Source of the DNA: a virus
Taxonomy: Duplodnaviria; Heunggongvirae; Uroviricota; Caudoviricetes
DNA: 37,792 nt
Direction: 5' to 3' (one strand)
IMG/VR virus record: IMGVR_UViG_2690316153_000015
Part shown: positions 2,809-14,093 of the stretch, piece by piece
Numbering within the stretch: position 1 is the first letter of the stretch
Layout: the number at the start of each line of letters is the position of its first letter
Made by a program: the position numbers and the translations under genes
The notes under the pieces: generated by a model
Database searches by the model: none
What the model saw: only the letters and a program-made list of their open reading frames with translations
What the model was told of the DNA's origin: nothing

Positions 2809-3051
2809 ATGGGCAAAGAATATAAAACTCTCATTAACAAAGCACTTGAGCGTTTTTATTTTCGCTTAAGTGCATCAGGCGCGCATGCTGAACGTGCAGC
2901 CCGTGACTCATTGACCAGGGCAATCCGGAGTCTGTATGACGTGGCTTTTTACGCTGATGATCTGGATGCACTTAACGAACTTTCCGAGCTGATCTGTGCC
3001 GCAGAATGCGGGGAACATATTGAACCGTATAAGCTGGGGAATATCGCATGA
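2809..3051 (+). CDS. Hypothetical early protein
   Basis: 80-aa ORF, RBS-like GGACG upstream, start/stop packed with neighbours. Confidence 0.45.
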   Translation: MGKEYKTLINKALERFYFRLSASGAHAERAARDSLTRAIRSLYDVAFYADDLDALNELSELICAAECGEHIEPYKLGNIA

Positions 3052-3161
3052 GTATATTTATCTCATGGCTTGTTCTGATTATTTCGGTGGCCTGCGCCAT
3101 TGGGATTATGCGAATTATTAATTCAGTGAAAAAGATTGAACGCTTTTTCACTGGCGAATAA
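3048..3161 (+). CDS. Possible 37-aa hydrophobic peptide (MSIFISWLVLIISVACAIGIMRIINSVKKIERFFTGE)
   Basis: ATG overlaps the stop of the upstream ORF (ATGA); single TM-like segment; not in the supplied ORF track because it is under 60 aa. Confidence 0.3.
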   Translation: MSIFISWLVLIISVACAIGIMRIINSVKKIERFFTGE

Positions 3162-5007: not shown

Positions 5008-7830
5008 ATGACGGCAGAGTACATCAGGGACTGGCAACAACCGCGCCACGCAGTGGGGCGTGAAGGAACGGGGATCCCCGCTCCTGAATCCGCGCTTTCC
5101 TCCTGGCTGGATGCCTACCGGGCAGAGAACGAGCGCCGCCAGGAAATGGCTGATGCGGCGTTCTCCGCCACGCCGCTGGGCAACCTGATTAATAAAAGCC
5201 TGGACGCACAGGAAAAACAGGACAAAACCATCACACTGGCAGGAGACGCCAGAAAACAGGCACGTGGCGCGGTGGATGAAGCCATGGCCTCACTGCGCCT
5301 GCTGCCGTCCTATCTGCGCGATCCGCTTATTCGCCACCTCTCCTTCCTGCGCAAAAAACAGGAAGCCGATCGCCGGAAAGGCAAAAAGAGCTGGCAGGCT
5401 GAACGCTACGCGTGCGGAACCCTGCGCAAAATATTCGAACGTCTGGACCGCACCGACCACCGCTGGCTGACACCGGGTTATCGCTCCCTTGCCGGACGCG
5501 AACGCCTGGATGATTTGCTTTACCTGCCGCAGCTCAACAAACACCAGATACAGACGCTGGCCACCATGACGGCGGCGATGTTCAGCAGCACCTTCGAAAA
5601 ACTCTGCGATGGCTTTGGCGCGACTGATGGCGAGCTGACCATGGATGTAACGCTGAAGGCTTATCAGATGCTGGCCCGCATGGCGTTACACCTGCACGCC
5701 ATGCCTCCACATTATGACGCACTGACAACAGACAAAGACCGGAGGAACGAACCGGACACGGAGCTGCTGCCGGGCGCAATCCTTCGCCTGACCTGTGCGG
5801 AATGGTGGAAACGCAAACTGTGGCTGTTACGTTGTGAGTGGCGGGAAGAACAACTCCGCGCCGCCTGTCTGGTTTCCAGAAAAACATCCCCCTATCTGAG
5901 CCAGGACGCGTTAAGCGAGTTTCGCGCACAGCGCGAGAAAACGCGCGATTTCCTGAAAAGTTTCATGCTGGAAAATGAAGACGGGTTCACGATTGATCTC
6001 GAGACGGTGTATTACGCGGGAGTAAGTAACCCGGTTCACCGTAAGGCAGAAATGATGGCCACCATGAAGGGACTGGAACTTCTGGCCGAAGCCCGTGGCG
6101 ACAGAGCGGTGTTTCTGACCGTCACCTGCCCGTCAAAATACCACGCAACAACGGAGAACGGTCATCCGAACCCCAAATGGAACGGGGCCACCATGCGCGA
6201 CTCCAGCGATTACCTGGTTAACACGTTTTTTGCGGCGGTCCGCAAAAAACTGAACCGCGACGGCCTGCGCTGGTATGGCATCCGCACGGTGGAGCCTCAC
6301 CATGACGGCACTGTGCACTGGCATATGATGGTCTTTGCACATCCGGACGAGATTGAAACCATCGTGTCCCACGTCTGCGATATTGCCATTCAGGAGGACC
6401 GCCACGAGCTGGGCGATGACATAACTCCGCGTTTTAAGGCGGAGTATGTCGACGGCTCAAAAGGCACACCAACCAGCTACATCGCCACCTACATCGGAAA
6501 GAACCTGGACAGCCGCGCCGTGGATGGCATCGACCCGAAAACGGGCAAGCCACGCGTTGACCACGAAACAGGTAAATCAATGGCCGAGAGCGTGGAGCGC
6601 GCCATCGGCTGGGCGCGCCTTCACCGGGTCCGTCAGTTCCAGTTCTTTGGCATCCCCTCCCGTCAGGTGTGGCGTGAACTGCGCCGCCTTGCCAGCCAGA
6701 TGGCACGCAATCCGGAAGGCCCGCAACGGCTGAAAGATGATGCAATGGATGCGGTACTCGCTGCCGCCGATGCCGGGTGTTTTGCCACCTACATTGAAAA
6801 ACAGGGTGGCGTGCTTGTTCCACGCAAGGACTACCTGATTCGCACCGCCTACGACCTCGCAGATGAGCTGAACGATTACGGCGAACAGAGCGTACAGATT
6901 TACGGGATCTGGTCACCACTCATCGGGGAATCCTCCCGTGTGTGCACGCATCCGGATAACTGGAAGCTGGTAAGACGTAAACCAGAACCGGAAGACAACG
7001 CCCACGAAAATGGTTTTGACCTTCAGGGCGGCCCTGCCGCCCCTTGGACTCGTGGCAATAACTGTCCCCGTGTACAGGAAACAGGCAACAACGGGACAGA
7101 ACAGCCGGAAGAACGGCCAGCACCGTGGCCGCAGCTTCCTGACGGCGTTGAAGTAAATGAATGGATGCGCTCACTGAAACGGCACGAACGCCGGGCGCTG
7201 ATGCGTTCGCTTCGTGACAAACAGGCAAAAAACAGCAGCGATGAAATGCAGAACTGGACACAGAGCCGCAAACAGCAGCGGCCTTTGCCTGATAACCACG
7301 AGTTACTCGCTAAAGAATGGCGGGAGTCTGCTGAATCTCTCGGCCTGCATATCGGTGAACAACAGATGCAGCACCTGTTACGGGGCGGCAGTCTGTACGT
7401 TGACGGCAGCATCATTGCACCGCAGGGATTTGAAATTGTACGCAAACCGGATACCCGCCCGGACAGCCGAATCACGCAGCTCTGGCAGCGTCTGAGCCGT
7501 AATCATGGCGTAAGCAGCACGGAGATCCGCCATAACCCGGTCGCCAGCTATCTGGCACAGCTGGGGGCATCAGACCCTGAAGCCGCCGCACGCCTGGCAT
7601 CCACACTTCAGCAGGACCAGAACACCATGAAAACACCCGTTACCGTGCTTTCTGACATGCTGCGCGCCATCCGCGACGCAGAGCACGCACAGAGAATCAG
7701 TGAAACCACTGAACGCGCCAGCCGCAAAGCAGACCTGCTGCGGGGTGGCCTGACCAGTGGAAACAAAAAACAGACAGAAACGGGACTCACGAATCCCGTA
7801 AATGAGCAAAAAACGCGCAGCGATATATGA
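5008..7830 (+). CDS. A: Replication initiation endonuclease A (rolling-circle, HUH superfamily)
   Basis: 940-aa ORF; HUH-like motif TVHWHMMVF and paired tyrosines YIATYIGK typical of P2 gpA / phiX174 A-type initiators; position after the early operon. Confidence 0.9.
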   Translation: MTAEYIRDWQQPRHAVGREGTGIPAPESALSSWLDAYRAENERRQEMADAAFSATPLGNLINKSLDAQEKQDKTITLAGDARKQARGAVDEAMASLRLLPSYLRDPLIRHLSFLRKKQEADRRKGKKSWQAERYACGTLRKIFERLDRTDHRWLTPGYRSLAGRERLDDLLYLPQLNKHQIQTLATMTAAMFSSTFEKLCDGFGATDGELTMDVTLKAYQMLARMALHLHAMPPHYDALTTDKDRRNEPDTELLPGAILRLTCAEWWKRKLWLLRCEWREEQLRAACLVSRKTSPYLSQDALSEFRAQREKTRDFLKSFMLENEDGFTIDLETVYYAGVSNPVHRKAEMMATMKGLELLAEARGDRAVFLTVTCPSKYHATTENGHPNPKWNGATMRDSSDYLVNTFFAAVRKKLNRDGLRWYGIRTVEPHHDGTVHWHMMVFAHPDEIETIVSHVCDIAIQEDRHELGDDITPRFKAEYVDGSKGTPTSYIATYIGKNLDSRAVDGIDPKTGKPRVDHETGKSMAESVERAIGWARLHRVRQFQFFGIPSRQVWRELRRLASQMARNPEGPQRLKDDAMDAVLAAADAGCFATYIEKQGGVLVPRKDYLIRTAYDLADELNDYGEQSVQIYGIWSPLIGESSRVCTHPDNWKLVRRKPEPEDNAHENGFDLQGGPAAPWTRGNNCPRVQETGNNGTEQPEERPAPWPQLPDGVEVNEWMRSLKRHERRALMRSLRDKQAKNSSDEMQNWTQSRKQQRPLPDNHELLAKEWRESAESLGLHIGEQQMQHLLRGGSLYVDGSIIAPQGFEIVRKPDTRPDSRITQLWQRLSRNHGVSSTEIRHNPVASYLAQLGASDPEAAARLASTLQQDQNTMKTPVTVLSDMLRAIRDAEHAQRISETTERASRKADLLRGGLTSGNKKQTETGLTNPVNEQKTRSDI

Positions 7831-7906: not shown

Positions 7907-8866
7907 ATGAAAATTTACATCGACGACGGCTCCACCAACATCAAGCTGGCATGGACTGAGAACGGCGAACGCCGCAACGCCATCAGCCCGAACAGCTTCA
8001 AGTCGGAATGGTCTGCGCCGTTCGGTGGCTCGCAGCCTGCTAACTACATGCTTGATGGCGTGCGCTATGGTTTTGATCCGGTCAGCGATCGCTTTGTCCA
8101 GACGACCGACACGCAATACCAGTACAGCGATGTGAATGTCATTGCCATTCATCACGCGCTGGTCAAATCAGACATCACGCCACAGGAAGTGGATGTGGTT
8201 GTTACCCTGCCACTGAGCGAATATTTCGACACAAACGCACAGCCGGACCTGGCCAACATCAACCGCAAAAAAGCGAACGTCATGCGCCCGGTGGAGTACC
8301 AGAACGGCGAAGCATTCACTATCCGTAACGTACGGGTTATGCCTGAATCCATTCCAGCTGGCTTTAAAGCACTGGCTGACATGAGTCCGTTTGAATCCCT
8401 GCTGATTGTGGATTTAGGCGGAACCACGCTGGATGTGGCAAAGGTTCAAGGGCAACTGGCAGGTATCAGCCAGGTGTTTTGCGATCCACACGTAGGCGTT
8501 TCCCTGATGGCCGATGCCGTACTGTCGGTGATGGCCACTAACGGTATGCGCACCAGTCACCACATCGCCAATACCATTATCGAACATCGCAATGATGAAG
8601 CCTGGCTGCGCCAGCACATCCACAATGACGCGCATTACGCCAGCCTGATGGCGGTTATTCGTGAAAAGGAAGAAACACTGAAACAACGCGTGATCCGCGC
8701 GCTGGCGGTTTTTTCGGGTTACGGGCGGGTGATGGTTGTCGGTGGAGGGGCGGAGATTGTGGCACCCGCTATCCGCGAAGTCTGCGGAGTTAATGCGACT
8801 TTCATCGCGGACGGGGTGCCACAGTTTGCTCTGGTTAATGGGCTGTACGCAATGGACAAGGAGTAA
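7907..8866 (+). CDS. parM: Actin-like plasmid segregation ATPase ParM/StbA family
   Basis: N-terminus MKIYIDDGSTNIKLAW...ISPNSFK...YSDVNVIAIHHAL closely resembles plasmid R1 ParM as I recall it; phosphate-binding DLGGTT and VGGGA motifs; 319 aa. Confidence 0.85.
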   Translation: MKIYIDDGSTNIKLAWTENGERRNAISPNSFKSEWSAPFGGSQPANYMLDGVRYGFDPVSDRFVQTTDTQYQYSDVNVIAIHHALVKSDITPQEVDVVVTLPLSEYFDTNAQPDLANINRKKANVMRPVEYQNGEAFTIRNVRVMPESIPAGFKALADMSPFESLLIVDLGGTTLDVAKVQGQLAGISQVFCDPHVGVSLMADAVLSVMATNGMRTSHHIANTIIEHRNDEAWLRQHIHNDAHYASLMAVIREKEETLKQRVIRALAVFSGYGRVMVVGGGAEIVAPAIREVCGVNATFIADGVPQFALVNGLYAMDKE

Positions 8867-8869
8867 ACC

Positions 8870-9185
8870 AATGACGACACCAACCAGACGGATAAGTTTC
8901 TATCTGAAGCCCGCCGCCGTCAAGAGTGAACAGGAGGCGTGCAATTACCTCGATAGCCTGCCAGCCTCCGAACGCAGCCGCGCGCAACGCGCGGCCTTTC
9001 TGGCTGGGCTAGCGCTCATAAAGCGCAACCCAGCATTTGCCTACTGGATGGCCGAATGGCCAGAGGACAACCTCCCCTTCAATACCGTTAGCATCAAGGA
9101 AACATACCAGGATAATCAGCCTAGCGGAGTTGAATGCAATTTTTATAAAATAAAAAAGAATATTCAAACCTTATTCCCAGAATAA
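8870..9185 (+). CDS. parR: ParR-like centromere-binding adaptor (ribbon-helix-helix)
   Basis: Start ATG at 8870 with AAGGAG RBS; RRISFYLKP...LDSLPASERSRAQRAAFLAGLAL resembles R1 ParR (…LDSIPQGERSRLNRAALTAGLAL); the longer track ORF from 8736 would overlap parM. Confidence 0.7.
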
Positions 9186-9234
9186 TCTGATAATTGTATG
9201 TGAACTAATAAAATACAGACCAACACATCATTCT

Positions 9235-9257
9235 GGCACCCTTGCTAACAGGGTGCC
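9235..9257. terminator. Hairpin GGCACCC-N9-GGGTGCC between convergent parR and the cassette
   Basis: Perfect 7-bp inverted repeat in the 83-bp convergent intergenic gap. Confidence 0.35.
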
Positions 9258-9268
9258 AATGTTTCAAA

Positions 9269-10111
9269 TCATGATGAAATTGCCGAAGTTTTTTTATCGT
9301 GCTGAAGTACCGCAAATGCCATTAAAACCTCAAGAGAATAGCGGCGATAATACTTAACAAAACCATAATAAAATACTCGGGATGCAGCAATACAAAACAA
9401 GAGAAGAAAACAAAAAGGTAACAGCCTGATATTTATATCTATTAAAAAGGATAGAAGGAACAGGAACATAAGCAACCAGACTGAAGCGAGAAAAACAAAT
9501 GTAATGTTTCTACAAAAACCATACAAAGCAACATAGTTTTGCATTTTCACCTGATGATTTTTAGAATGTTCATACACATAATGATAAGCAAGGCGAAAAA
9601 GATCGCCCCTCAAGCCCTTACGTCGATATAGCGTAGATACAGAAAAAACATTTATATAACCATCTCGTATTTGCGGCCAAAAGACTTTAATAAGTATAGA
9701 ATGCAGTGTGGTTTTATGATGTTCTGCTTTATCAAAAGCTGATACAGGAAATAAAAAAACTCCACGGATAAAATTAACTATACTGAACTTAGTATTATGT
9801 CGTTTTATTTTCAGGGAGCTTCTTTTAGAAAACAGATAAATTGAAGGATACCCAAGTTTACTGTTCATGTATTTTTCAATTAAACAGGATGATAGAATAG
9901 ATATGAAGTGACCTGAAATATATGATAGAACGATTAATACCACATATATAAATACACTTATTATTTCTTTATATTTCAGGATATGGTTAAGAATACCTTC
10001 TATATAAACAGGGTTAATTTCAATAGAAAACAAAAAAAGGATAAACAGGAATAACCCACCTGGAATTAGATAGCCCAAAAAGTCATAAAATGAAAACGGA
10101 TTCTGTGTCAC
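9269..10111 (-). CDS. Multi-pass membrane protein, unknown function (cassette gene 2); GTG start
   Basis: 280-aa ORF; at least four long hydrophobic segments; very AT-rich codon usage unlike flanking phage genes; GGGGGA RBS before GTG. Confidence 0.65.
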   Translation of the reverse strand: MTQNPFSFYDFLGYLIPGGLFLFILFLFSIEINPVYIEGILNHILKYKEIISVFIYVVLIVLSYISGHFISILSSCLIEKYMNSKLGYPSIYLFSKRSSLKIKRHNTKFSIVNFIRGVFLFPVSAFDKAEHHKTTLHSILIKVFWPQIRDGYINVFSVSTLYRRKGLRGDLFRLAYHYVYEHSKNHQVKMQNYVALYGFCRNITFVFLASVWLLMFLFLLSFLIDINIRLLPFCFLLLFCIAASRVFYYGFVKYYRRYSLEVLMAFAVLQHDKKTSAISS

Positions 10112-10150
10112 ACTTCCCCCTGTGTTACTTGTAAATTAAAGGGTAAAACA

Positions 10151-10648
10151 TTATTTGTTTTTCCGTAAAGGATTAGCTTTCCATCTTCTTACTAACCATT
10201 CGAATTCTTGATATGTAGTATCCGAATTAATGCTTTCTCTGATTGCTTTAATTAATGGCTCGGCAATATCATATGTCTCTACAACTGTTGTGTAAGATGT
10301 TCTTTTTATCATTTTTTCATCATAAATACCTTCACGAATACTTACAGCAACTCGCTCGTAAAAATTTAAAATATATTGAAATTTTCGACGCTCGGCCATT
10401 TCTTCATCTGTTATTATGCAACCATCACAAGGAAAAACATAAGAACGAAATGATTTGCCTGAACGATGCACTTGTTTCAGGGTATGCAATGACTCTATAT
10501 ATTGCATATCTTGCCGACTCTCAAAAAGAAAGTTGGCCGTTTGAGTTTTTTTTGCGGTACGCACATTGTAGATAATGGTTCCAATGGCAACCAAAACGCC
10601 AAGCAGAACAATAGCATTGCTGATGATTTGTAGTGTTATTGGGTTCAT
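10151..10648 (-). CDS. Single-pass membrane-anchored protein, unknown function (cassette gene 1)
   Basis: 165-aa ORF; N-terminal TM segment ITLQIISNAIVLLGVLVAIGTIIY then ~135-aa soluble domain with CDGC motif; AT-rich; 39 bp upstream of gene 2. Confidence 0.65.
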   Translation of the reverse strand: MNPITLQIISNAIVLLGVLVAIGTIIYNVRTAKKTQTANFLFESRQDMQYIESLHTLKQVHRSGKSFRSYVFPCDGCIITDEEMAERRKFQYILNFYERVAVSIREGIYDEKMIKRTSYTTVVETYDIAEPLIKAIRESINSDTTYQEFEWLVRRWKANPLRKNK

Positions 10649-10663
10649 CCTATTTCATCCATA

Positions 10664-10690
10664 AAAAAGGCGGGGAGCAAATCCCCGCCT
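10664..10690 (-). terminator. Intrinsic terminator on minus strand (GGCGGGGA-TTTGC-TCCCCGCC then T6), ending 15 nt upstream of the cassette start codon
   Basis: Perfect 8-bp GC stem followed by a T-run when read on the minus strand. Confidence 0.55.
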
Positions 10691-10845
10691 CATTAGAGGT
10701 CAACGTAGCTTAGAAACCATCAAATTCATCATACATTTTTTTCATATCAACCCCCTCATAGAAATCATAACCACGTTTTGTGGTTTTTGTGACGCATAAA
10801 CTACATCAAAGGCAAGCCACGGTCAAATATATAGGCATGCTTACC

Positions 10846-11295: not shown

Positions 11296-12342
11296 TCAGG
11301 ATGTGGGCTGGGTGTCTAACAGTGCGTAAGGGTTAAAGCGGATCACCTCTTCGCCAAGCCAGTCATTGATGTGCTTCATGGCCTCCATGACGGGCATCAG
11401 CTCGTTAATTGCGTAAACCCGCGCGGCCTTCTCCACATCACCAAACGCACTTTTTTCGCCCGGCATCGCCCCCATCAGTTGCGGCGGAACGCGGTGCGCA
11501 GCCAGCACATCATCACGGGATGCCGCCTTAACATTCATGAACTCATCCTTTGCGGTGATCTGCTGGAACGGCAAAATTTGCACCCCTTCTTTGCCCCCGT
11601 TGGGCGCATGAATGAGCACGTTTTTAAATGCACCACCACCACGCGCACCCTGTAACGTTTCTTTCAGGGAGTCCATGCTTTCGCGGTTTACCTGCGCTGC
11701 ACCGATGTAGATGATGCACCCGGCGTGGGATCCGTTGTCGTAATACAGTTTTCTGAACATGTCCGCCGAATGAGAAAGGCTGGCCGAGAGTAATGCGCCA
11801 AGATATTCCGGCATGCCGTAGATTTCCTGGTTAATATCCGGATTCATCAGGTGGCACACTTTGCCAGGGCGAAACTGGAACGCGTCCTTGCCATCCTGCA
11901 CATACCACCATGATTCAAGATCGCTTCCGCGTCGCATGTATTTCGCCAGGGCGTGCCGTAATTTAAGCGGTTCGCCGAGCATATTGCTCCGAAGCTCAAG
12001 GAATGCGTTACCGAACACAAACCAGTCCAGCGCCAGCGCCGAGAAATCCTGCCGGGAAAGCAGCGGGTGCGGGATGTAGCACCCGAGCAATACATTACGC
12101 TTAAAGTAAAGCGCAGACTGATGCCAGGACGTTTGCCGGGCGGCTCTTGCCAGACCGTACCAGTCCACCGGGGTTTCATACCACCGCCCGTTATCAGCAC
12201 AGTACATATTGTCCAGCAGGTCATGCCCGGTCAGGCGATAAGGACCATCAAATGTGAATGCACTGAGCGATGATTCTTTCCTGAGCGCATCAGCGAGATC
12301 AATGCGTGAACTCATGCGCACTTTTTTATTTTTTCTGCTCAT
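11296..12342 (-). CDS. Q: Portal protein (P2 gpQ-like)
   Basis: 348-aa ORF adjacent to and co-oriented with the large terminase; position and size as in P2 Q. Confidence 0.85.
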   Translation of the reverse strand: MSRKNKKVRMSSRIDLADALRKESSLSAFTFDGPYRLTGHDLLDNMYCADNGRWYETPVDWYGLARAARQTSWHQSALYFKRNVLLGCYIPHPLLSRQDFSALALDWFVFGNAFLELRSNMLGEPLKLRHALAKYMRRGSDLESWWYVQDGKDAFQFRPGKVCHLMNPDINQEIYGMPEYLGALLSASLSHSADMFRKLYYDNGSHAGCIIYIGAAQVNRESMDSLKETLQGARGGGAFKNVLIHAPNGGKEGVQILPFQQITAKDEFMNVKAASRDDVLAAHRVPPQLMGAMPGEKSAFGDVEKAARVYAINELMPVMEAMKHINDWLGEEVIRFNPYALLDTQPTS

Positions 12343-14093
12343 CAGAACTCCATAACCGTAAAACGCTCGTTTTCCCCTTCGCCGCCAATCGGTTCGTTAA
12401 TGACAGCAAGCATGGTTGCCCACGCAAGGTCGCCGTGGCTGATCCCCCTCGCACGGTCCGTTTCGTAAGTGATAAAGCCGCCCGGTGTTTTCACCTTACG
12501 CACGGCGTTAAAGGCTGCGACCAGCTCGCGTTCGGCGCGATCATATTCCCACCGCCCGGCACGCATTATTTGCAGCATTTTCAGTACCAGCGACCGTTTT
12601 GATGACAGCGTGAAGGTGTACGGAATAGCAGCAGGGAAAAACCGTTTCACTATCTGATAAACAGCCTCCCCGTTCCCGCCCGTCACATCAATGCCGATGT
12701 GTTCCACGTTGTAGCGACACGTGAACTCTTCAATGACTCTGGCCTGTTCTTCAAACTCCAGCCCCTGAACGCGTCGCGTCTCCACCGTTCGAAAACGGCC
12801 TCCAGGAACAGCCGGAGGAACCACCACGGACACAGCGCCGCTGTCGCCGTTTCCACTGCTGCCGTTTGCGTCATACCCAATCCATACCGGACGATTTCCC
12901 ATCGGGCGGGGAGCAAAAGGTTTCCAGTCTTTCCAGTCGTCGTATCCGTCAACACCGCAGCCAATCAGGATATTCAGGTTAAATGCCGATTCCCCTTCGC
13001 GGACAAACTCACACATATAGAGATTGCGGAACTCGTCTTCGGTGTTTTCATCACGAATTTCGTCAATATCGGTGTGTTTCCAGCCGTGATTAACCACATC
13101 TTCCAGCGTGACAATTTGCCGCCACGTCCGGTCAGGGCAGATAAGCCCGTTATGCAGCGTTTTCCAGTCCACAGAAAAACGCTGGCGTTTATGCGTGGCC
13201 TTTTTCTCGTTCCAGCGGTCGCCATTCCAGTAGGCGTATGCCTCGTGCGTTTCGGTGGATGGCGTGGAGAAGTAGGTGCGCCGCAGTCCGCTGAGGGTTG
13301 CCATAGCGCCAGCCACCTTGCGCAGTTCAGCAAAGCGACTGACCCAGAAAAATTCATCAAAATAAAAATTGCCCGTGTAGGACTGTGCCGTCGCAGCAGA
13401 AGTACCAAGAAAATGCAGCTCTGCGCCGTTGGAGAGGATGATTTTATCGCCCCCTTTCAGCTCCACATCAACTTCAGCCGCAGCCTTCTGAATAATGCTT
13501 TTAAACTGGAACGCCTGACGACGCGACGCAGACAAAAAAATCTGGTTACGCTGGTAAGGTTGTGCCACATCGTCACGCAGCGCCATCAGCAGTGCTTCCT
13601 GTGCAAAATACCAGGTCGCCCCAATCTGTCGGGATTTCAGGATCATCCTGTTACGTATCCCGGCTTCCCTGCAAAGGGTCAGGGAGTCAAACCAGCCCCG
13701 CTGATGCCACTCCAGCCTGCTGATGATTTTTTCCCGCAGTGCGGCAATCTGTTCCGGCGTGAAATGATTTTTGAGTTTTTTCGCCCGGCCTTTCTTTCCT
13801 GCGGCCATCACATCCGGCTGGCCATCATGCAGCTTTTTAAGCTGCCGGGTCAGCAGGTCTATTTCCTTGAAGTCACCACCTGTTTTATTCTGTTTTTCAG
13901 TAAGCTGGATGAGGCGCGCATCGATGGACTGCGTGACACGCTGCACGGGTGGCGTTTCATCCCACTGGTCGCGTTTTTTCCACGCATAAATCGTGTTCGG
14001 GTTTATTCCCATCAGACGTGATATTTCTGCGGGCGGATAACCCTGCCAGTAAAGTTGCCGCGCACGCTGGCGCACAAAAGCGTCCTGAATCAT
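12342..14093 (-). CDS. P: Terminase large subunit (P2 gpP-like)
   Basis: 583-aa ORF; helicase-like ATPase region and C-terminal nuclease-like region; divergent from O-N-M capsid operon as in P2. Confidence 0.88.
   Translation of the reverse strand: MIQDAFVRQRARQLYWQGYPPAEISRLMGINPNTIYAWKKRDQWDETPPVQRVTQSIDARLIQLTEKQNKTGGDFKEIDLLTRQLKKLHDGQPDVMAAGKKGRAKKLKNHFTPEQIAALREKIISRLEWHQRGWFDSLTLCREAGIRNRMILKSRQIGATWYFAQEALLMALRDDVAQPYQRNQIFLSASRRQAFQFKSIIQKAAAEVDVELKGGDKIILSNGAELHFLGTSAATAQSYTGNFYFDEFFWVSRFAELRKVAGAMATLSGLRRTYFSTPSTETHEAYAYWNGDRWNEKKATHKRQRFSVDWKTLHNGLICPDRTWRQIVTLEDVVNHGWKHTDIDEIRDENTEDEFRNLYMCEFVREGESAFNLNILIGCGVDGYDDWKDWKPFAPRPMGNRPVWIGYDANGSSGNGDSGAVSVVVPPAVPGGRFRTVETRRVQGLEFEEQARVIEEFTCRYNVEHIGIDVTGGNGEAVYQIVKRFFPAAIPYTFTLSSKRSLVLKMLQIMRAGRWEYDRAERELVAAFNAVRKVKTPGGFITYETDRARGISHGDLAWATMLAVINEPIGGEGENERFTVMEF

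Follow-up and report, generated by a model that had tools for sequence, protein, structure and literature searches.

SieB, T4 Imm and Sp, and lactococcal Sie2009 are small inner-membrane proteins encoded by single accessory genes at prophage ends or hotspots, and in P2 the genes tin and old occupy a slot equivalent to the one considered here. This slot holds a cassette of two open reading frames (ORFs), termed ORF-A and ORF-B, in a tailed-phage sequence of 37,792 nucleotides (IMG/VR record IMGVR_UViG_2690316153_000015; the whole stretch is referred to as the window). Both ORFs fit the same general description as SieB, Imm, Sp and Sie2009, and no sequence or profile similarity of either to these proteins, to tin or to old was detected.

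The pair has been catalogued by Rousset et al. (2022; Cell Host Microbe; PMC9122126), whose Table S5B names it “System 3: DUF4760” and counts it 1,102 times in the P2 hotspot. System 3 ranks third in frequency among the cargo of this hotspot in E. coli, and the table gives a Phobius note (“1 TM in protein 1, 4 TM in protein 2”) and no functional comment (PMC9122126). Its proteins are identical to those of the window save for one residue in protein 2, and they lie in the same gpA-gpQ hotspot. Neither the sequences nor the name of System 3 appears in the table of cloned constructs of that paper. Literature searches with DUF4760 and two RefSeq WP accessions found no functional study of either protein, neither protein is in the supplements of Vassallo 2022, and NCBIfam gave zero matches for ORF-A and ORF-B. 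The cassette is catalogued but uncharacterised. An initial annotation of the window had called it unrecognised, a description that must be dropped, as ORF-A belongs to Pfam family DUF4760, ORF-B has a weak but consistent match to Csx27 and the pair stands in Table S5B.

A 1.7-kb region is at least 99% identical in three phage records (vB_EcoM-705R2, vB_EcoM-569R5 and a P88-like prophage of sequence type 131 (ST131)), and 289 of 5,426 complete E. coli genomes (~5%), ST131 included, carry near-identical copies, annotated as “hypothetical protein” and “DUF4760 domain-containing protein”. These copies, together with the three phages and a sharp drop in guanine-plus-cytosine (GC) content, are consistent with the horizontal acquisition proposed initially. 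Rousset et al. treated System 3 as one system, whereas the present analysis finds two separable units together with an unannotated micro-ORF and terminator. Two separable units and a native leader change how the locus must be tested.

The reading favoured here, at a probability of about 0.5, is that the interval contains two autonomous, horizontally acquired single-gene units stacked in the gpA-gpQ hotspot and co-transcribed in this lineage, each of which would protect the lysogen at the inner membrane through phage exclusion or a triggered membrane effect. Unit 1 (~10793..10151) would comprise a promoter, then the micro-ORF (MKKMYDEFDGF), translated strongly, and after it an intrinsic terminator and the DUF4760 gene. 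Unit 2 (10120..9269) would be a Csx27-family protein with four transmembrane (TM) helices and its own strong Shine-Dalgarno (SD) sequence, found elsewhere as a lone prophage gene. DUF4760 is probably bitopic in the inner membrane, with a helical domain on the cytoplasmic side that has the EP-domain fold and may bind a small acidic ligand or a phage component; the micro-ORF and terminator would keep it low or conditional, nearly silent until read-through rises. ORF-B may act on nucleic-acid entry in a channel-like manner, as published work predicts for the Csx27 family. What has been observed directly is how the locus is built, to which families its proteins belong, that the two genes are separable and that the leader is conserved. 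A role in lysogen protection is suggested by the position in a validated defence hotspot and by the membrane topology. Three of eight other systems cloned from the P2 hotspot were protective (PMC9122126), and at the P4 hotspot six of eight unknown loci were (PMC13586616). The cassette comprises the following features, with protein lengths in amino acids (aa):

10151..10648, minus strand: ORF-A, 165 aa, ATG start, DUF4760 protein with an N-terminal TM anchor and a cytoplasmic helical domain

10112..10150, minus strand: spacer of 39 bp between ORF-A and ORF-B, with the ORF-B SD GGGGGAAG at 10120..10113

9269..10111, minus strand: ORF-B, 280 aa, GTG start, 4-TM protein of the extended Csx27 family

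The GTG start of ORF-B is backed by homologues that share the N-terminus MxQNPFSFYDF and by its strong SD. Because the terminator scan found no terminator between ORF-A and ORF-B and the ORF-B SD is strong, the two genes of the window are likely to be co-transcribed. Their GC fractions (0.349 for ORF-A and 0.318 for ORF-B) lie below those of gpA (0.577), ParM (0.545), the portal gene (0.54) and the window (0.512). Much of the initial description is borne out by these data: two co-oriented minus-strand genes separated by 39 bp, their AT-richness relative to the flanking genes (0.54-0.577), and a single-pass 165-aa protein beside a polytopic 280-aa protein, for which 1 TM and 4 TM are predicted.

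The separability of the two genes was examined by gathering loci through homologues of each protein and checking every locus for the other. Among 99 loci the pair was seen only where ORF-B is at least 96% identical, and beyond these on one further short contig (L100), where B is 87% identical and the whole cassette, at 93.7% nucleotide identity, represents the same lineage; co-occurrence thus failed across diverged homologues and is confined to B proteins of at least 87% identity. DUF4760 proteins of 46-88% identity, at 21 genome loci from ~17 genera, had B within 6 kb in none of the 21 cases. Among 49 viral DUF4760 loci, 40 lack B, and the nine that have it all carry the same cassette. A lone DUF4760 gene occupies the same slot in P2-type prophages of Pectobacterium, Xenorhabdus, Kluyvera and Dryocola, and two loci (L133, L134) have the window's phage backbone (portal 100%, gpA 97%, ParM 97%) with a 78% DUF4760 allele and no B. 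Conversely, diverged B homologues (37-46% identity; ~68 diverged B loci) have no DUF4760 within 5-6 kb, and in at least 44 of 59 viral B loci the gene stands alone in a lambdoid prophage, immediately behind yfdQ-yfdR-like genes or immediately ahead of xis-like and integrase genes. Across 17 genera the DUF4760 unit is homologous at the nucleotide level from window position 10745-10756 to 10151-10196; this stretch includes the leader and ends at the ORF-A stop. From these sequence comparisons it is concluded that the cassette is probably a recent stack of two autonomous accessory genes and not a co-evolved sensor-effector pair. The dedicated sensor-plus-effector pair suggested at first does not survive, as the genes are evolutionarily separable and co-occur in one shallow lineage only.

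At three chromosomal loci in Enterobacteriaceae (L028, L030 and L031; ~5960-6480), DUF4760 is an islet of one low-GC gene, flanked by nrdA-nrdB-yfaE-like genes on one side and by the gene for a GlpT-like transporter on the other, these neighbours being named from their N-terminal sequences. DUF4760 therefore occurs outside prophages too.

The leader upstream of ORF-A contains the following elements:

10764..10793, minus strand: promoter-like site GTCACA-18-TATGAT, from a consensus scan

10769..10785, minus strand: inverted repeat ACCACAAAACGTGGT / AACCACAAAACGTGGTT, in the spacer of the promoter-like site

10757..10751, minus strand: SD of the micro-ORF, GAGGGGG, from sequence reading

10745..10710, minus strand: micro-ORF of 11 codons, MKKMYDEFDGF-stop, from sequence reading

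10706..10719, minus strand: stop-codon hairpin of five base pairs, UGGUU-UCUA-AGCUA, from RNAalifold

10695..10703, minus strand: conserved box TTGACCTCT, complementary to the micro-ORF SD region

10691..10667, minus strand: terminator-like hairpin GAGGCGGGGA/UCCCCGCCUU, with a T-tract to 10661, from the terminator scan

The leader is conserved with DUF4760 across ~17 genera. The SD, micro-ORF and hairpin are present in all 17 aligned genome loci, and 42 of the 47 viral loci with upstream sequence (49 in total) match the peptide pattern. The five exceptions are three variant peptides (…DEFEWV) and two insertion-disrupted alleles. Conservation acts on the peptide: in 12 loci ending in DEFDGF all changes within these six codons are synonymous, and over the last seven codons of the micro-ORF 180 synonymous pairwise codon differences stand against 37 nonsynonymous ones, all 37 at codon -7. 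A scan of 674 kb of control loci gave no match to the motif, and the window has just one.

The micro-ORF ends 18 nt ahead of the terminator hairpin, which has 10 pairs, seven of them GC, and whose stem ends 19 nt ahead of the DUF4760 ATG. Every aligned locus has a hairpin of -11 to -17 kcal/mol with a T-tract, even where the stem sequence is wholly different (L027, L031). In the alignment 92% of cells are paired for the terminator hairpin and 88% for the stop-codon hairpin; jointly the two reach 90%, where slid controls give 35-59%. Covariation scores 0.31, the comparison values being at most 0.13, and none of 500 shuffles equals the observed value. In the stop-codon hairpin both partners have changed at three of the five pairs (U-A to C-G, 8 versus 7 sequences), although the aligned leaders are related and such counts overstate the number of independent events. 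The box is conserved as (T/C)T(A/G)ACCTCT in 13 of the 17 aligned leaders, and the minimum free energy and centroid folds of the window leader pair it with the SD region. This pairing was rejected as a proven helix, since any CCUC box complements any SD and covariation cannot settle the matter.

In all intact loci examined, a short ORF of translated type followed by an intrinsic terminator lies directly 5' of the gene. No promoter fits between the terminator and the ATG, and DUF4760 therefore requires read-through transcripts; its expression would be low or conditional because only read-through past the terminator yields them. By the same sequence argument, ORF-B must presumably also depend on read-through unless an internal promoter exists. 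Further upstream, weak evidence favours 10764..10793 as the promoter of the leader: the eight promoter-like sites in the region are not above chance (6.8 expected). The inverted repeat at 10769..10785 may be an operator; GTCACA and an ACCAC-N5-GTGGT-like inverted repeat recur in the P2-located DUF4760 loci L013 and L101. In several E. coli genomes, ST131 included (L157, NZ_OX637964.1, and hits H4-H8), IS421 sits inside the terminator hairpin, with a target duplication at window 10673..10685, so that the promoter and micro-ORF are cut off from DUF4760 and ORF-B. A second insertion allele (L114) is broken at the same place.

A degenerate DNA scan of viral contigs for DEFDGF-stop gave at least 119 matches (L158-L275 among the loci). 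Micro-ORFs of the type M-x(1-4)-DEFDGF-stop with a hairpin behind them are widespread in contigs of enterobacterial phages. Among the matches listed, 35 lie upstream of DUF4760 and 84 elsewhere; 90 of the 119 are ORFs of at most 12 codons (MYDEFDGF 22, MNDEFDGF 15, MKDEFDGF 13, and others), the 21-mer occurs in 33 DNA versions, and 98 have a hairpin of at least -10 kcal/mol strength within 60 nt downstream. Intact DUF4760 loci always carry the element, and the element is not exclusive to DUF4760. The same hotspot of E. coli A8 reads gpA-ParM-ParR-[micro-ORF and hairpin]-174-aa hypothetical protein-Ea22-like gene-portal. The extra 174-aa gene of L001 was considered as a further bearer of the leader and rejected, being a different protein with no such leader. 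At the end of a Gp49-family gene the micro-ORF ATG overlaps that gene's stop and is followed by a palindrome and terminator, and at operon ends in L172 and L277 (~3020-3090) there is no downstream gene. L172 contains two convergent copies; elsewhere the motif occurs as a tandem duplicate, and a further locus is L276:3553-3613.

The comparison class for such a leader comprises the trpL/pheL attenuators and the TnaC and cat/cmlA leader peptides. Like these, the window leader places a short ORF with a strong SD before an intrinsic terminator and a regulated gene, and it shares with arrest peptides a conserved peptide sequence. Unlike trpL/pheL-type attenuators, it has no regulatory codon runs and no convincing antiterminator, and the micro-ORF, unlike attenuator leaders, is also found at operon ends with no gene to follow. 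No Rfam family matches the leader, and the peptide motif was not found in the literature searches. The x-DEFDGF element is unannotated, lies outside Rfam and the literature searched, and has at least 119 occurrences in viral contigs. An x-DEFDGF micro-ORF of 8-11 codons with a hairpin, usually a terminator, may thus serve phage accessory genes in general, as a regulatory or a micropeptide element. Two readings of the micro-ORF present themselves, a cis-acting arrest or attenuation peptide and a trans-acting acidic micropeptide.

ORF-A matches Pfam DUF4760 (PF15956) with 119.3 bits (cut-off 25; E 1.8e-34), residues 12-156 aligning to profile positions 2-141 of 141. It has one N-terminal hydrophobic helix (residues 8-26), and an N-out/C-in topology is suggested because no K/R precedes the helix and RTAKK follows it. 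Four basic residues are invariant in DUF4760 (R45, R68, K115 and R137). The CDGC motif highlighted in the initial annotation is present at residues 74-77 and is not a meaningful feature: it is unconserved, and was rejected as a functional motif on finding K/R/G/T/S in place of the second Cys in close homologues and often A/G/I in place of the first. All DUF4760 relatives listed, about 230 of the 293 found, are single-domain proteins of ~165-211 aa, save for truncated entries and one possible fusion. Widening the search to look for domain fusions or neighbouring signalling enzymes brought up only enterobacterial single-domain proteins. The possible fusion, a metagenomic protein of 287 aa (P0229), joins a DUF4760 segment to PF06541, a polytopic membrane family, and is either real or a gene-calling artefact.

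In structural comparisons with two programs, EDS1/PAD4/SAG101 was the best match to the DUF4760 model, clearly separated from the rest, with 130-152 of 165 residues aligned. The match probably falls in the EP domain, because the query is all-helical and the other EDS1-family domain has an alpha/beta fold; the model shares the EP-domain fold at 7-10% sequence identity. In plants, the EP domain of EDS1/PAD4/SAG101 receives, within heterodimers, the TIR-derived nucleotides pRib-ADP/AMP and ADPr-ATP. EDS1-family proteins have a lipase-like domain N-terminal of EP, where DUF4760 has a TM anchor instead, and the locus has neither the partner EP protein nor the TIR gene of an EDS1-type system. The AC1 “2TM + 1TM + TIR” system of the same hotspot was considered as a relative that would link the EP-like fold to TIR signalling and was rejected (hhalign probability below 1% against both family profiles).

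It is conceivable, and on balance quite improbable, that DUF4760 is a bacterial and phage homologue of the EP domain, a membrane-anchored receptor for a small acidic signal that then acts at the membrane against phage, its synthesis gated by a new and widespread micro-ORF/terminator class. The candidate signals, should DUF4760 be such a receptor, would be an ADP-ribose-derived nucleotide or the x-DEFDGF micropeptide encoded just upstream. The EP domain has so far been regarded as plant-specific. A prokaryotic antiviral origin has been found for TIR and NLR-like proteins, and such homology, if true, would give the EP domain one as well; a phage or bacterial protein with the signal-receptor fold of EDS1/PAD4/SAG101 could bear on the origin of the domain. 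The EP-like fold, the micro-ORF/terminator element and the prophage-borne Csx27 relatives are three testable leads that are new with respect to the literature searched.

ORF-B matches phrog_12528 (E 1e-71) and, over residues 6-243, the PADLOC Csx27 hidden Markov model (HMM; E 1.9e-5). Among 40 diverse members of its family, 28 match Csx27 (best E 1.3e-8) and 13 the Cas-VI-B-associated tm_4 model, a signal that is weak but consistent; the PADLOC models have no curated threshold. Beyond these two, the 40 relatives have almost no matches among 5,027 models; they have no Pfam match, and a structure search with ORF-B gave no informative fold match. Clustering at the 50% level leaves 1,107 representatives of the family. 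TM helices in the AlphaFold model span approximately residues 8-27, 48-85, 184-224 and 231-279, with hydropathy and Phobius agreeing on four, and the predicted topology puts both termini and the basic central ~120 aa in the cytoplasm.

Csx27 is an accessory membrane protein of type VI-B1 CRISPR-Cas13b (Smargon 2017; Makarova 2019, via PMC7642515 and PMC11662929). It shares with ORF-B four TM helices, similar size and HMM similarity across most of the protein; ORF-B, at ~280 aa with its central cytoplasmic domain of ~120 aa, is longer than the Csx27 model of 206 positions. Csx27 proper adjoins cas13b and a CRISPR array, whereas ORF-B is a lone prophage-borne gene with neither of these nearby, and no Cas gene is annotated in the equivalent 25.7-kb locus, where all ORF-B neighbours are P2-family phage genes. 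A distant relative (P0241; L104:753-4839) appears to share an operon with methyltransferases and two unknown proteins (358 and 490 aa), next to a nucleotidyltransferase/HepT-like pair. Part of the Csx27 family is reportedly associated with DNA modification, and this operon would fit. The large prophage-borne Csx27 branch offers a tractable E. coli setting for a family of only predicted function.

Several points weigh against two lysogen-protecting units with a gated DUF4760 gene. Anti-phage function of both proteins would follow from position and topology, and the hotspot is not reserved for defence: it also holds ParMR and the cytolethal distending toxin (PMC9122126). Five of the eight additional P2-hotspot systems cloned were without activity (PMC9122126). 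The sole tested activity of Csx27 is repression of Cas13b, and its channel role is a prediction (PMC7642515, PMC11662929). The PADLOC comparison proposed in the initial annotation yielded Csx27 for ORF-B and no known-defence model for DUF4760, which lacks consistent similarity to any model: in PADLOC-DB v2 it matches only PDC-S35 (E 0.014), as do three of 24 family members (best E 0.0042). The EP-domain match is at fold level only, with Foldseek E-values of 0.2-0.5, and a sequence-level link to EDS1 was rejected because profile searching turned up no EDS1-family chain among all PDB sequences (E up to 10) and no Pfam match besides DUF4760 (E up to 1). Finally, RNAalifold and RNAfold show no convincing antiterminator competing with the terminator arms, which leaves a classical attenuator uncertain.

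The tight packing and co-transcription of the genes would equally suit a functional pair, in which DUF4760 senses infection and activates a membrane-disrupting 4-TM protein, causing abortive infection. Such a genuine two-component system is unlikely. It draws on the co-orientation, the 39-bp gap free of terminators, the strong ORF-B SD, the intactness of the pair in the 289 complete E. coli genomes and in the copy diverged to 93.7% nucleotide identity, its listing as one system (PMC9122126), and the frequency of TM proteins as effectors in validated systems. However, diverged DUF4760 proteins (46-88%) all occur without B and diverged B proteins (37-46%) all without DUF4760 within 5-6 kb, a B-less allele is known in the same phage backbone (L133, L134), the abundance of the pair is largely that of one clonal cassette (at least 99% identity), and the AC1 system of the same hotspot is unrelated. 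An account without anti-phage activity, in which the genes serve lysogenic conversion or envelope physiology, prophage maintenance or addiction beside ParMR, or control of DNA uptake, also appears improbable. Non-defence cargo is at home in this hotspot, where about one quarter of P2-like phages have ParMR (PMC9122126), and the cassette adjoins ParMR; the chromosomal islets, such as those beside nrdAB-yfaE (L028, L030, L031), the absence of any match to validated defence models, the links of the Csx27 family to natural-transformation and DNA-modification genes (PMC7642515, PMC11662929) and the methyltransferase operon of P0241 point the same way. Yet DUF4760 recurs in the same P2-type slot in many genera without ParMR, ORF-B relatives occupy classical moron or exclusion-gene positions, and defence cargo typically shows such rapid turnover of alleles within one fixed slot.

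Also unlikely, finally, though slightly less so, is the idea that the micro-ORF product is a trans-acting acidic micropeptide (x-DEFDGF-COOH) that partners or neutralises DUF4760, and equally so its antidote/toxin-like version, in which an abundant labile peptide restrains a scarce membrane protein that is released when a phage shuts off host expression. Conservation at the peptide level across 33 DNA versions of the 21-mer among the matches listed speaks for it, as does the high peptide-to-protein ratio expected from a strong micro-ORF SD and a DUF4760 gene that has a weak SD and stands behind a terminator. In L172 and L277 the same micro-ORF stands at the end of an operon, where no gene follows that it could regulate, the invariant basic residues of DUF4760 could bind an acidic ligand, and RNAalifold and RNAfold found no antiterminator. 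Nevertheless, 84 of the 119 viral copies listed lie away from DUF4760, the IS421 alleles that split the unit persist, which is odd for an essential antidote unless DUF4760 is silenced too, and binding of the peptide by DUF4760 is purely hypothetical.

Around the cassette, the window contains the following genes and sites:

5008..7830, plus strand: gpA, replication protein, 940 aa

7907..8866, plus strand: ParM, partition module

~8870..9185, plus strand: ParR/StbB-type protein, partition module

9234..9258: inverted repeat TGGCACCCT-N7-AGGGTGCCA, between the convergent ORF-B and ParR, from sequence reading

11296..12342: portal gene

12342..14093: terminase gene

The cassette site is the cos-proximal gpA-gpQ hotspot of a P88/186-like P2-family prophage. 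The initial placement between replication gene A and the cos/portal end stands as regards the hotspot and needs amending in that a ParM/ParR-type module (StbA/Plasmid_stab_B; 7907..9185, plus strand) lies between gene A and the cargo. The P2 cos sequence is absent from the window at up to three mismatches, and the window contains no tRNAs. Weak evidence makes the inverted repeat at 9234..9258 a possible bidirectional terminator; it was not flagged by the terminator scan and has no clear T-tract. The Pfam domain Phage_GPA spans only residues 179-503 of gpA, leaving a C-terminal extension of ~430 aa without domain assignment. In O157:H7 genomes an IS3 element takes the place of the cassette behind the homologous ParR gene, and homology stops at about window position 9217. 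In many related prophages a segment of ~610 bp (L001:14202-14811), missing at window ~11296-11300, lies between cassette and portal; it encodes the 174-aa hypothetical protein WP_000236495 and is part of the common arrangement according to the list of Rousset et al.

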